Both the position numbers and the translations under genes were made by a program. From the NCBI GenBank assembly GCA_963663405.2, contig CAXXSM010000118.1, positions 96,001-160,000 of the forward strand: DNA of 64,000 bases. Reading direction: 5' to 3'. The DNA is from a bacterium (GTDB lineage Bacteria; Hinthialibacterota; Hinthialibacteria; Hinthialibacterales; Hinthialibacteraceae). This document shows positions 11,090 to 14,030 of this stretch, in pieces. The notes under the pieces were generated by a model. It ran no database searches, was not told the DNA's origin, and worked only from the letters and a program-made list of their open reading frames with translations. Positions within the stretch are counted from its first letter, which is position 1, and every line of letters begins with the position of its first letter.

Positions 11090-11170
11090 ATGATGCGTAA
11101 AAGTATATTGAGTCCCCTTTTCAGACGTGAGCGATTGTTATTATCAATCAGTATTCTTTTATTGATAATA
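11090..11170 (+). pseudogene. 5' fragment of a TAXI-family solute receptor gene interrupted by a mobile element
   Basis: MMRKSILSPLFRRERLLLSISILLLII joins in frame to TFIYWISF... at 13599 when 11171-13598 is removed. Confidence 0.75.
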
Positions 11171-11421
11171 GATAGGAGTTTTTATCGAGCGAAGCCGAGA
11201 TACAAACTCTATTGGACGAAGTGCGGGGGGAATGTGAGAACCTATAACACACCATTAATTCGCGAAACGGTTCAATTGAGAAAGAGAAGTTGATGGTTTA
11301 GAAAGAGAAAATCATCTTGAAACTATAGAAATCCCATCACGGCAAGAAAAGTAAAAAAATCTTCCCACGTAAAGTTATAATTTCTTTGTATAGCCATCGC
11401 GATGCTTACAATCGGAATCGA

Positions 11422-12588
11422 TCAGGGGCTTCGATTCCGATTGAGGGTTTCAATGACAATCACGTTACAGCTTTTGCAACGCGGACATTTAGGCCATTCC
11501 GGCGCCGATTCTTGGCCGGTCCGATCGAATACTGCTTTGTCGTTGGTCTCTTTTGAAACGATGGAATTCTCAACCGATTCGGGAATAGAAACGCTCTCCG
11601 CCTTGGGGGCGAGGAGCAAACGGATTCGATTGCGTGTGTCCCGATGACAGTGATGCCACAGCCCATAGTAGCGGACTTTATGGAAGCCGCGGGGGAGCAC
11701 ATGCATCACGAAGCGCCGCAGAAATTCTTCGCCCGGCAAGCGGAGAGTTCGCCAATGCTTCTCTTTGAAGGTCTTGTAGCGGAACGTCACGTGGGTAGCG
11801 TCCATTGCCAGAAGCCGGTGGTTGGAGATCGCGATGCGATAGACATAGCGCCCCAGGTAATTCAAGATGGCTTTCACGCCTTTGCCATACGGTTTGCAGA
11901 ACGAGTTCCAGCCTCTATTCCAGACCTTGGTCTCGATGCCTTGGAAGATCTCCGGCGCCGCTTTTTCGAGCCGTTCTTTAAAGCGCCGGCGAACGAGTAA
12001 GCTGAGCGTTCCCACATGGAGAAGCCATTTCGGGTGGCGGAGTTCCATCCAAGAGTGGCCGTCCTCACTCACGGCGCCGGCGCTGACCAACAGATGGACA
12101 TGTGGATGCAATTCCAGATCTCCCCGCCAAGTGTGCAGCACGGCCAGGATCGCCGGGGTCCCGCCAACGACTTGGGGATTGCGCATCAGATCCATGATAC
12201 AGGAAGCAGCCGTCGTCATCAGCAACCCATAGAGAATCTTTTGATGAGCCAAGAAAGCCGCCCGGATAGACTGCGGAACTGTTACGATTACATGAAAGTA
12301 ACGGCAGCCAAGCATCTGGTCTTCCCGCTTCTCGATCCATTGCCGCATCGCCTGGGAATGACAGGACGGACAGGATCGATTGCCACACCCGTGATACACC
12401 CAGAAGTCTTCGCCGCAGTCCTGACAGTGATAACGATGCCCTCCCAGTTCCGCCGTATGACAGGCCATGATATCGTGCAGCGCTTTACGCTGGGAGGGCA
12501 AAAGGCGCTTCCCTTGCTGCCGGATATAGGCCGGGCCAAACCGGCGAACCACATCGCCGAGTTCGAGGTTCGATGAAGTGCAATTCAT
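11422..12588 (-). CDS. IS91-family rolling-circle (HUH/Y2) transposase with N-terminal Zn-binding domain
   Basis: C..C, CGNRSCPSC, YFHVIVTVP, LHTW...HPHVHLLV (HUH), YLGRY (Y2), RRFVMHVLPRGFHKVRYYG, C-terminal CPRC. Confidence 0.92.
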   Translation of the reverse strand: MNCTSSNLELGDVVRRFGPAYIRQQGKRLLPSQRKALHDIMACHTAELGGHRYHCQDCGEDFWVYHGCGNRSCPSCHSQAMRQWIEKREDQMLGCRYFHVIVTVPQSIRAAFLAHQKILYGLLMTTAASCIMDLMRNPQVVGGTPAILAVLHTWRGDLELHPHVHLLVSAGAVSEDGHSWMELRHPKWLLHVGTLSLLVRRRFKERLEKAAPEIFQGIETKVWNRGWNSFCKPYGKGVKAILNYLGRYVYRIAISNHRLLAMDATHVTFRYKTFKEKHWRTLRLPGEEFLRRFVMHVLPRGFHKVRYYGLWHHCHRDTRNRIRLLLAPKAESVSIPESVENSIVSKETNDKAVFDRTGQESAPEWPKCPRCKSCNVIVIETLNRNRSP

Positions 12589-12597
12589 GATTCCTCC

Positions 12598-13445
12598 TCA
12601 CATCAGATCGGCGAACACGGCGTTGATCCGATCCTGAGCCTCGTGGCGAAGCGGCTCAGTCAAATGAGTGTAGATCTGTGTCGAACGAATACTGGAATGG
12701 CCGAGAAGAATCTGGACAACGCGCAGGCTTTCGCCGTTCTCCAGCAATCTGCTGGCAAACGAATGACGCATCGAATGCGGCTTCACATCGTCTGTCAGCC
12801 CGGTAGCGTTACAGGCCAAGCGAAACGCTTTGCCGAGTGTCGATGAGGGAATGTGGTTGGAGCCTTGTTGGTTGGGGAATAGCCAGGTGGGATGGCGATG
12901 CATCAACCAGAGTTCACGCATCGGCTCCAACAAGGTGTCCGGGAGAGGAACGATTCGCTCTTTATCGCCCTTCCCAATAATCCGTAAACTCATTTGGTTG
13001 GAATCGATCTGCCGCACCGGAAGAGAGATGACTTCACTGGTCCGAAGGCCGCACGCATACATCAACGTTAGAGCCAACCGGTAGGGCGTTTTCCTGACGG
13101 CGGCCAGGAGGGCGCGAACTTGGGAATGGGTTAATGAATGCGGCAGGCGCTTTTGGCGAGGCTTACGAATCTTTTTTTTGCAAACAACGGCCACCCCAGA
13201 TCCAGCGTGGTTTGATAAAGAAATTTCAGCGCGCTGTAGTGGACCTGAAACGTTCCGAGAGCGACTTTCTTCACGTCTCGCAAATTCAGTAAATAGACCC
13301 GGACGAGTTCCTCGCTAATGCATTCTGGCGAGCAATCAAATTCTAGAGCGAATGAGGCGACGGCTCGGACGTATGCTTTTTGCGTGCCTTCGCTCAGTCC
13401 TGCTAACGTCATGTCTTCGATCATGCGTTTCCGTAATGATTTCAT
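12598..13445 (-). CDS. Tyrosine recombinase with N-terminal SAM-like domain, split into two frames at an A8 run (13172-13179)
   Basis: N part 13131-13445 (LRKRMIEDM..GLSEGTQKAY); C part with YACGLRTSE, GKGDKER, HSMRHSFAS, LLGH and TQIYTH; joined by a -1 shift. Confidence 0.88.
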
Positions 13446-13598
13446 GATCTTTCTCCTGTAAATAAGTAGTGGTTGGCAGTCTTACAGCCACTGCCTTCTC
13501 AGAAGAAATACATGACAACTCAGGAGATTTCGCAAGGGGATTGTTCAACTAGAAAATTCGGCGTACGACACTCTGCGGCGGAGCCGCTTCGTCCAATA

Positions 13599-14030
13599 AC
13601 ATTTATCTATTGGATTTCATTTCAGGATTTTGGGCCTTCCAGCGAACCGTTGAAAATAACCGCGGGTGATACCAGCGGAATCCGCCATCAATTCGCCCGT
13701 TTATTGAATGAGGAAGCGCAACCGTTCGGTGTATCTCTCGAGCTGGCCGGAACGCAAGGATCAGAGGAAGCGCTCGATCTTGTCAATCAAGGTAAATTGA
13801 ATCTTGCGTTTGTACAAGGTGGCTTACGCCAAAACCGGCCAGTCTCTGAATTGTGGAAAGAAGTGTTGGAAGATAGTGTCAACATTGGAAGAAAAACACT
13901 CTCATTTCGTTTACATCAATTTTCAAAGATTCCGTCCAAAGAAACCTGTGTTCGTCCGAAAAATCCAGCCACCCGACCGGGATTCATTGCAATGCATAGA
14001 TTACTCAAACGATATTACTCACTGATATAG
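13599..14030 (+). pseudogene. Truncated 3' continuation of the TAXI TRAP-type solute receptor gene
   Basis: LKITAG...TQGSEEALDLVNQGKLNLAFVQGG is typical of TAXI receptors; similarity is lost after ~13845. Confidence 0.7.

Follow-up and report, generated by a model that had tools for sequence, protein, structure and literature searches.

Genes of the element and the interrupted reading frame

The window analysed here is a 64,000-nucleotide stretch of contig CAXXSM010000118.1 from a bacterium of the family Hinthialibacteraceae, and this work concerns an insertion sequence of 2,428 bp within it, which carries a split tyrosine recombinase gene and an IS91-family transposase gene and interrupts a host open reading frame (ORF) (Table 1). 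All coordinates are those of the whole window; the genes of the element lie on its minus strand, so the gene strand is the minus strand throughout. The element belongs to the IS91 family, is present in many copies, and has been active recently; it makes no target duplication and inserts immediately 5' of TT on the gene strand.

The transposase residues H161, H163, Y244, and Y248 are invariant in a 37-sequence alignment and H165 is nearly so, i.e., the HUH and YxxxY motifs are present, and the catalytic residues R, K, H, R, H, and Y of the recombinase are invariant in an alignment with IntI1. The preliminary description of this DNA had called the latter protein a tyrosine recombinase, and profile, structure, and plasmid matches together with the IntI1 alignment identify it as one of the Xer/IntI kind. 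Its catalytic part scores alike against the NCBIfam models of XerA, XerD, XerC, and, in two stretches, integron integrase, while the N-terminal domain has as its sole NCBIfam match the integron integrase model TIGR02249, against which the recombinase reaches 127 bits (cut-off 265). The nearest solved structures, all equally near, are XerD, IntI4, an XerC-like protein, and XerA, and the best named match among plasmid records is IntI1, over 93% of the length of the recombinase. No integron integrase scoring over the cut-off was found in the same genome or in the control genomes.

The motifs reported earlier at the two junctions lie exactly where they had been placed: AATA at 11167-11170 and 13595-13598, GAGTTT at 11176-81 with AAACTC at 11204-09, TATC at 11183-86 with GATA at 11198-201, GCGAAGC at 11189-95, GCGGC-GGA-GCCGC at 13575-87, and the arms TATTGGACGAAG at 11210-21 and CTTCGTCCAATA at 13587-98. 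Excising 2,428 bp restores the host frame as had been claimed (MMRK...LLLII|TFIYW...), which is then open for 170 amino acids (aa). The cuts 11171-13598, 11169-13596, and 11167-13594 are equivalent 2,428-bp cuts; cutting 2,426 bp instead leads to a stop at residue 27 of the host ORF. Neither a relative of this ORF nor an empty-site allele was found among 19 genomes of the same family (11 of them ≥90% complete and ≤5% contaminated), and the ORF matches no Pfam family. About 75 of its residues resemble the start of a periplasmic binding protein (an impression only), followed by low complexity and a stop (13599-14030), and the ORF may be a gene remnant.

Table 1. Features of the insertion sequence and of the interrupted ORF, in window coordinates (ter, terminus; ori, origin).
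Feature	Position	Strand	Remarks
Insertion sequence, 2,428 bp	11169..13596	-	ter end 13596, ori end 11169; 15 copies with the same ends; excision restores frames
Target-derived AA (TT on gene strand) beside origin end	11167..11168	.	sole flank shared by every copy
Origin-end tail TAGATAG (gene strand CTATCTA)	11169..11175	+	unpaired in folded junction; putative crossover/nick at its 5' edge
Origin hairpin, GAGTTT/AAACTC and TATC/GATA stems, GCGAAGC apex	11176..11209	+	covariation across relatives
Inner arm TTGGACGAAGTG	11212..11223	+	complementary to the last 12 bases of the element; preceding TA extends pairing in this family
Terminus hairpin GCGGC-GGA-GCCGC	13575..13587	+	triloop conserved in relatives
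Terminal arm CGCTTCGTCCAA (gene strand TTGGACGAAGCG)	13585..13596	+	last 12 bases of the element
IS91-family HUH-Y2 transposase, 388 aa	11422..12588	-	PF14319 and PF04986; NF033538 343.8 bits (cut-off 125)
Tyrosine recombinase, catalytic part, -1 frame	12598..13194	-	PF00589 8.5e-41
Tyrosine recombinase, N-terminal SAM-like domain, 0 frame	13131..13445	-	PF13495 1.6e-17; stops 13 codons past the A run
A8 run (T8 on plus strand), reading frame must shift -1	13172..13179	-	conserved in copies and relatives
Host ORF, 5' part	11090..11168	+	interrupted by the element
Host ORF, 3' part	13597..14030	+	no Pfam family

Copies in the genome and the exact ends

BLAST searches with the two ends against the element's own genome (8.44 Mb in 170 contigs, 82% complete) returned 16 ter-end and 16 ori-end matches, which make up 15 elements in 11 contigs; a solitary origin fragment of 26 nt and one further terminus fragment are left over. 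Identical transposases are encoded by 11 of the 15 copies, so the spread of the element is recent. Every copy in the genome stops at the same bases, which confirms the earlier proposal of a discrete mobile element with these ends. Two other choices of end were rejected along the way. A left end at 11210, which would have bounded the element by its 12-bp inverted repeat, is contradicted by all copies continuing to 11167/11169, and the CTATAC near 11388, considered as an IS91-type end at which other copies might stop, has a counterpart (CTATA[CGT]) in only 1 of 59 other loci.

Fourteen copies have both flanks. The left boundary AATA|GATAGG is constant among the copies; the right boundary is constant only as ...CGTCCAA, and the two bases that follow it are TA (five copies), TG (five), GC, CG, TT, or AT. 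The constant stretch thus measures 2,430 bp where the insertion adds 2,428 bp, so one AA belongs to the target and the other to the element. As to which is which, two relatives, L053 and L081, carry AT and GT, respectively, after the origin tail in place of TT, and hence the origin-side dinucleotide is flank and not element. Read on the gene strand, the element is therefore TTGGAC...CTATCTA, inserted 5' of TT.

The 3' flank on the gene strand is TT in 14/14 copies of this genome and at 41/41 sites elsewhere. Within the genome the site can be written as YA|TTT(T), with A at position -1 in 11/14 and T at positions +1 and +2 in 14/14. No target duplication, coupling sequence, or overlap region was found in these 14 copies, each of which has a single exact joining position per side. 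The preliminary description had noted AATA at both junctions and had proposed it as a 4-bp core; the repeat is indeed present here, but it occurs in only 5/14 copies, and what the copies have in common is just AA (TT on the gene strand), or A|TT. We accordingly discarded AATA both as a target duplication and as a core.

A second interrupted gene agrees with these ends. The copy in contig C99 lies inside a Tn3-type transposase gene, whose frame of 383 aa is reopened only by a cut at exactly these ends: the left piece matches positions 3-274 of the NF033527 model up to the junction, and after excision the frame stays open for a further 88 aa. This host gene (C99:43662-47237, locus L011) is a Tn3-family transposase gene (DUF4158) and is itself truncated 88 aa past the insertion point. 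The copy at C103:19126-22061 (L012) is longer by 509 bp, located in the non-coding stretch that separates the inner arm from the transposase stop (at the counterpart of window position 11304), and its terminus end is 8% diverged.

A further feature of the target was seen locally. At 13 sites in this genome, the insertion lies at the 5' edge of the T-tract in a dyad of A-tract, 5-7 bp, and T-tract, which scores 2.5-2.9 of 5 against 1.4 in matched controls, a significant excess. The same dyad was absent at the 41 sites in other genomes (1.51 against 1.37 with a spacer of 7, P 0.11), and a dyad-symmetric target was therefore demoted from a rule to a local preference. The 15 copies showed no preferred orientation with respect to GC skew or gene direction, the skew itself being weak.

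Head-to-tail pairs preserve the predicted circle junction

The ends of the element had been predicted to form a long hairpin when joined in a circle. This junction is present as real DNA in the genome, since a head-to-tail tandem pair at C118:28165-33019 (L003/L006) is joined as ...CGTCCAA|TAGATAGG... with nothing between the copies. Folded as single-stranded DNA (ssDNA), the tandem junction reaches -22.4 kcal/mol (z -4.3), and none of 200 shuffles folded as well. The junction pattern also matched nine metagenome contigs, two of which are true head-to-tail pairs with host flank beyond the second copy (L129:1-2618 and L131:1-2632). The L131 pair is no assembly loop, because its two copies differ by a few bases in the hairpin. 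Given how loose the target otherwise is, the three tandem pairs hint at a preference for inserting at the terminus of a resident copy, for which either enzyme could account.

Relatives and conserved end architecture

A single-protein scan of the species genomes gave no close relatives. With an alignment as query, 260 of 386 candidate stretches from these genomes encode relatives, from Planctomycetota, Alphaproteobacteria, Acidobacteriota, Gemmatimonadota, and other groups. In a further scoring of 8,000 candidates, 5,441 were related transposases. The gene order was compared in the best 80 loci plus L023, 81 in all. Both halves of the recombinase lie directly upstream of the transposase gene in 72/81 of these loci, most of the remainder being cut by contig ends, so the recombinase is retained with the transposase as had been expected. 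Three genomes hold four copies each, with elements of 2,439-2,468 bp and the same kind of ends. The metagenome contigs with related transposases are mostly ~2.3-2.9 kb long, which equals the size of the element, and several contigs of species genomes (L048, L071, L084, and L114) begin 0-2 nt from TTGGAC, as is expected when assemblies break at a multi-copy repeat.

Comparing 45 distinct origin ends and 31 distinct terminus ends revealed a shared layout: a 12-bp arm ending in GTCCAA, a covarying hairpin of 13-14 bp, a tail of 7-9 nt, and then TTGGAC with the second hairpin. On the gene strand, the terminus consensus is |TTGGAC(G/T)(A/G)A(G/A)CGGCT-N-CGCCG, and the origin end has CG(C/T)T(T/C)(C/A)GTCCAA, a spacer of 1-3 nt, the two strands of a 13-14-bp stem on either side of the loop GGCT-N-CGC, the tail, and |TT. 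The conserved origin tails across relatives are YTRTCTR or TTAATTCG. Three distant loci, whose transposases are 36% and 45% (local tblastn) and 33.6% (L120) identical to this one, follow this layout too, but their arms are TTGAAC/GTTCAA, sequences that remain compatible with TTRRRY/RYYYAA.

Some origin ends depart from this layout. In L045 (4912-5022), the origin end is followed at once by a second copy of the final 111 nt of the element, and in L105 (~2620-2665), the last 20 nt (the 3' stem arm and tail) are duplicated in tandem; both repeats may be traces of re-initiation or of aberrant termination at the origin. In L132 (1340-1440), a variant origin end has its tail fully paired, with CAGACAAGG...CCTTGTCTG around the hairpin, so that a continuous palindrome takes the place of the lopsided bulge that other families have.

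Covariation of the hairpin and the probable folding strand

The junction hairpin is conserved and covaries across the 45 distinct relatives, as the earlier description would have it. RNAalifold predicts 13 pairs in the origin hairpin, and 10 of these show compensatory changes. Once the apex pair is included (14 pairs), 95.1% of 629 cells are paired against 79.1% in column shuffles (0/500 as high), and slid partners pair in only 39-51%. Changes on both sides are seen in 11/14 pairs, but hardly ever in the three stem pairs at columns 24-26 (within GRSTTTT), unlike most other pairs of the stem. As for the 12-bp arms, positions 1-6 are paired in 32/32 distinct elements and positions 7-12 in 21-31/32, and covariation at position 7, where G goes with C or T with A, holds in 31/32.

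The wobble pairs differ between strands. The origin hairpin has 28 G·T pairs on the antisense strand and six on the sense strand (11 against five when counted once per pair and kind), and arm positions 1-12 have 14 on the antisense against three on the sense strand, counts that are not independent of phylogeny. G-N-A triloops with a free N are found on the antisense strand in 34/45 origin ends (as a GC-GNA-GC apex) and in 29/31 terminus ends; the heptamer d(GCGAAGC), which forms the apex here, is known for its special stability. The gene of IS91 and ISCR elements has terIS on its upstream side and oriIS on its downstream side (stated in bioRxiv 10.1101/2025.11.21.689736), and the IS91 model as outlined in PMC5714925 has one strand peeled from the origin to the terminus into a single-strand circle. 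With this geometry the displaced strand would be the antisense strand, in agreement with the G·T counts of hairpin and arms and with the GNA loops. Taken together, these comparisons point to the strand antisense to the genes (the plus strand of the window), the one that IS91 displaces, as the folding strand.

The same counts bear on whether the origin hairpin might act chiefly at the RNA level, as a terminator of the integrase-transposase transcript or as a regulatory antisense RNA, for instance, the fit of the ends being incidental. A stem followed by a T-rich tail on the gene strand would suit this. However, the 28 G·T pairs of the antisense strand would be C·A mismatches in a sense RNA, the hairpin was not called by the terminator scan and has no Rfam match, and the partner of the arm is the far end of the element, 2.3 kb off. 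We give this explanation almost no credence.

A probable slippage site in the recombinase gene

The two frames of the recombinase gene overlap at GCA AAA AAA AGA, where a -1 shift gives ...LFAKK-KIRKPRQKRLP.... The A8 run is identical in 14/14 copies of the genome, including two that are 5-6% diverged. Among 72 relatives (L039-L118), a -1 shift is required in 49 and a +1 shift in 12, in every case at a run of A6-A9, and 11 have in-frame genes (two with A6 and nine without a run); these frames were taken from alignment coordinates, and a few assignments may be off. Full-length in-frame recombinase genes of 290-371 aa do exist. The run is probably a programmed slippage site, and since shifts occur in both directions, transcriptional slippage is favoured over -1 ribosomal frameshifting. 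The arrangement resembles the rationing of the transposase in IS1 and IS3, an analogy that suggests the full-length recombinase as a rate-limiting actor. The site is not mentioned in the available text of the recoding surveys PMC3711429 and PMC5009743, in which neither IS91 nor integrase occurs as a whole word.

An integron-like core at the junction

Integron integrases cross over between bases 1 and 2 of GTTRRRY (as given in PMC8876359). In the element, the junction reads (G/A/C)|TTGGAC, to be compared with GTTRRRY, and the opposite arm reads GTCCAA(N), to be compared with RYYYAA(C). The arms GTCCAA/TTGGAC or GTTCAA/TTGAAC always fit the integron core apart from its first base, and the position of the crossover fits as well; the base of the element before TTGGAC is G in 17/45, A in 22/45, and C or T in 6/45 ends. 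In the fold, the cut is at the 3' edge of the arm duplex, followed by the unpaired tail of 7-9 nt, and this is the place where a tyrosine recombinase would be predicted to cut. The single cut position without duplication has the geometry known from folded-ssDNA recombination, in line with what had been proposed. A second stem, an unpaired tail, and a strand bias, which recall attC, are also present, but the centre is asymmetric and no conserved extrahelical base was seen. The target base at -1 tends to equal the last base of the element: it is G in 15/16 elements ending in ...TTCG (a by-eye tally) and A in 11/14 copies of this genome, likewise matching. Such a match suggests a test for short homology.

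Classical double-strand integration is unlikely by comparison, because no 6-8-bp overlap identity, heterology, or coupling sequence was found at the 14 sites of this genome or the 41 foreign ones, the two arms are 44 bp apart in duplex DNA, and the target dyad is not general. In the mechanism first proposed for the element, excision and integration are both the work of the tyrosine recombinase, and the IS91-like protein serves only as a rolling-circle Rep that copies the circle once it is out. In favour of this mechanism, the junction resembles a recombinase site, and a circular Sphingomonas plasmid of 4,862 bp is annotated with an integrase and an IS91-family transposase only. On the other hand, an integrated copy has mere half-sites at each end, single-position ends without overlap or coupling sequences oppose classical two-strand excision, and contig depth inside the element is no higher than 15 copies would give (~35-50 against ~3.7 in the flanks, ~9-13x, which is not a valid measure and so not a firm point). 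The view of the IS91-like protein as merely a plasmid-type Rep is also at odds with an origin downstream of the transposase gene as in IS91, with the CCTATC-type tail, and with the IS91-type nick boundaries. We consider this mechanism improbable.

The Sphingomonas plasmid (L121, NZ_CP155766.1) was examined as a possible dimer circle of such an element and rejected as one, since it has no internal repeat, is no tandem of the element, and lacks these ends. It is non-mobilizable, its IS91-family transposase is 36.9% identical to the one described here, it has no recognisable Rep, and its third long ORF belongs to no Pfam family. The plasmid might replicate with its HUH protein.

A candidate two-enzyme pathway

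The account that we put first, with a confidence that falls just short of even, is that the HUH enzyme produces a single-strand circle, the folded junction of which is then inserted by the recombinase. From what is known of the family and from the anatomy of the ends, the HUH transposase would nick the antisense strand (the plus strand of the window) at AA|TAGATAG, 7 nt before the origin hairpin, and host replication would peel the nicked strand off toward the terminus. The 3'-terminal arm ...CGCTTCGTCCAA would then pair with the inner arm TTGGACGAAG beside the origin hairpin, which would bring the second cut (CCAA|) next to the first and allow the strand to be closed into a single-strand circle. 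The circle junction forms the long imperfect hairpin described above, i.e., a 12-bp arm duplex, an unpaired tail of 7-9 nt with the junction, and a 13-14-bp stem with a GNA loop; its role as the site of recombination is putative. Laid out as an attC site, this hairpin has GTCCAA(N) in the place of RYYYAAC and (N)TTGGAC in that of GTTRRRY. A full-length Xer/IntI-like recombinase, made only after slippage at the A8 run, would bind the folded site and exchange one strand with a duplex target at N|TT, the cut position of an integron integrase, and replication would finish the copy.

Several observations weigh against this account. No circle, empty-site joint, or strand-specific molecule was found in the contigs (assembled sequence, not reads) of four public runs, in which loose contig ends at 11167 and 13596-13598 merely repeat the boundaries of the element. 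No conserved extrahelical bases were seen, and the unpaired centre has 1-2 nt on one side but 7-9 nt on the other. The strand bias in wobble pairs is weakened by the phylogenetic dependence of the counts, and nearest-neighbour folding energies are equal for both strands. As for the recombinase itself, it scores as well against XerD and XerA as against IntI, and the IntI-specific insertion is absent from all five IS91-linked recombinases aligned with IntI1. A preprint on recombinase classification (10.1101/542381) does contain the remark that an integron-like subgroup includes the recombinases of IS91 elements, with this insertion missing, but the published version of that paper is without the IS91 remark.

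The recombinase is, moreover, dispensable in principle, because canonical IS91 transposes by its HUH enzyme TnpA alone, according to the account in PMC5714925. This leads to a competing explanation, in which the HUH-Y2 enzyme carries out both excision and insertion at the AA| beside each GNA hairpin, the arms bring the terminus to the origin-bound enzyme, and the recombinase is an accessory that might resolve tandem multimers or cointegrates, or whose N-terminal fragment might act as a regulator. The AA|Y at both cut sites, the pairing of the arms, and the identity of the +1 base fit cleavage by the HUH enzyme alone equally well, the origin tail is IS91-like (...TCCTATCGAT|CAAG in L119, ...TCCTATCTA|TT here), and tandem copies that would need resolving do exist. 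The pairing of a transposase with a tyrosine-recombinase resolvase is also established (Tn4430 TnpI, PMC2847244). A resolvase, however, would call for an internal site with arms 6-8 bp apart, and none was noticed in the non-coding parts while aligning the ends, where no systematic search was made; no inverted arms are conserved other than those right at the crossover; 72/81 loci retain the recombinase, which is throttled by a slippage site as transposases are; and the orientation bias expected from targeting of ssDNA at forks was not seen, the signal being weak. We hold an HUH-only route to be a serious possibility, if a somewhat doubtful one.

Significance and comparison with known systems

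The element is a new member of the known integrase-carrying IS91 subgroup, whose gene co-occurrence is documented in PMC9208149, where 245 "IS91 - tyrosine recombinase XerD" couples in 15 phyla are counted. Our literature search found no paper on the ends of this subgroup or on the role of its recombinase. What is added here are the exact ends, the family-wide covariation, the folding strand, the integron-like core, and the slippage site, which make the role of the recombinase, not explained in the literature found, directly testable. The 15 near-identical copies, the tandem junction, and the family-wide end alignment amount to a natural experiment that yields cut positions, a folding strand, and a candidate recombinase site.

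In its fullest form, the two-enzyme ssDNA pathway would have the HUH-Y2 transposase release a circle and an integron-like recombinase, rationed by transcriptional slippage, insert the attC-like junction at N|TT; we regard this complete version as possible, with doubts outweighing confidence. If it is true, integron cassettes would have their closest free-living relatives in such elements, which could show the origin of IntI and attC, and the joint travel of recombinase and IS91 transposase in at least 15 phyla would be explained. Should the recombinase insert the folded strand, rolling-circle transposons would be linked to the origin of integron cassettes, and the element would offer a compact system for placing single-stranded DNA into duplex targets.

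The subgroup, which includes ISWz1, ISSod25, ISAzo26, and others (ISfinder names), has the same gene pair as the element described here. Canonical IS91 of E. coli (L119, plasmid NZ_CP122708.1) shares with it an HUH-Y2 enzyme with a zinc-binding N-terminal domain, HUH and YxxxY motifs included, the lack of a target duplication, a structured and foldable ter upstream and ori downstream, and a CCTATC-type origin tail, and a single-strand circle is an accepted IS91 intermediate. In contrast, a 121-aa ORF takes the place of the recombinase gene in IS91, the TTGGAC/GTCCAA arms are missing from it, it abuts CAAG instead of TT, and its transposase is ~29% identical. The origin flank here, TT and then T, G, or C, is likewise not the tetranucleotide GTTC/CTTG of IS91 or its complements. 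The likeness of the IS91 end ...ATTCCTATCGAT|CAAG to ...ACTCCTATCTA|TT here is only suggestive, because it is a single comparison and most relatives have GAYAAG, not GATAGG.

The IS200/IS605 elements (IS608) also use an HUH enzyme, have subterminal hairpins, are cut a few nt from the foot of a hairpin, make no target duplication, and form an ssDNA circle junction. They differ in that their enzyme is a Y1 enzyme of another lineage, in having no recombinase, and in a tetranucleotide target that is read by base pairing. CTX-phi resembles the proposed pathway in that a simple tyrosine recombinase acts on a hairpin from circular ssDNA, with one strand exchange that is completed by replication. It differs in relying on host Xer proteins and a single dif site, whereas the element described here encodes a recombinase itself and is found at many TT sites that are only loosely defined. 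XerCD-mediated integration of folded ssDNA, of the CTX-phi type, is mentioned in PMC9345347.

The closest parallel to the candidate recombination site is the integron, with its integrase IntI and folded attC sites. Both systems have a simple recombinase of the Xer/IntI type with a SAM_4 N-terminal domain, no target duplication, and head-to-tail arrays. The arms here also fit RYYYAAC/GTTRRRY apart from the first base, the crossover would likewise fall between base 1 and TT, and the single strand would likewise be folded. The IntI insertion and the attI platform with its promoter are absent here, no conserved extrahelical bases were seen, and the copies are dispersed over 11 contigs and not collected in an integron array. 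Unlike an integron cassette, the element would obtain its single strand by its own HUH enzyme, and the first base of its core is G in 17/45 only.

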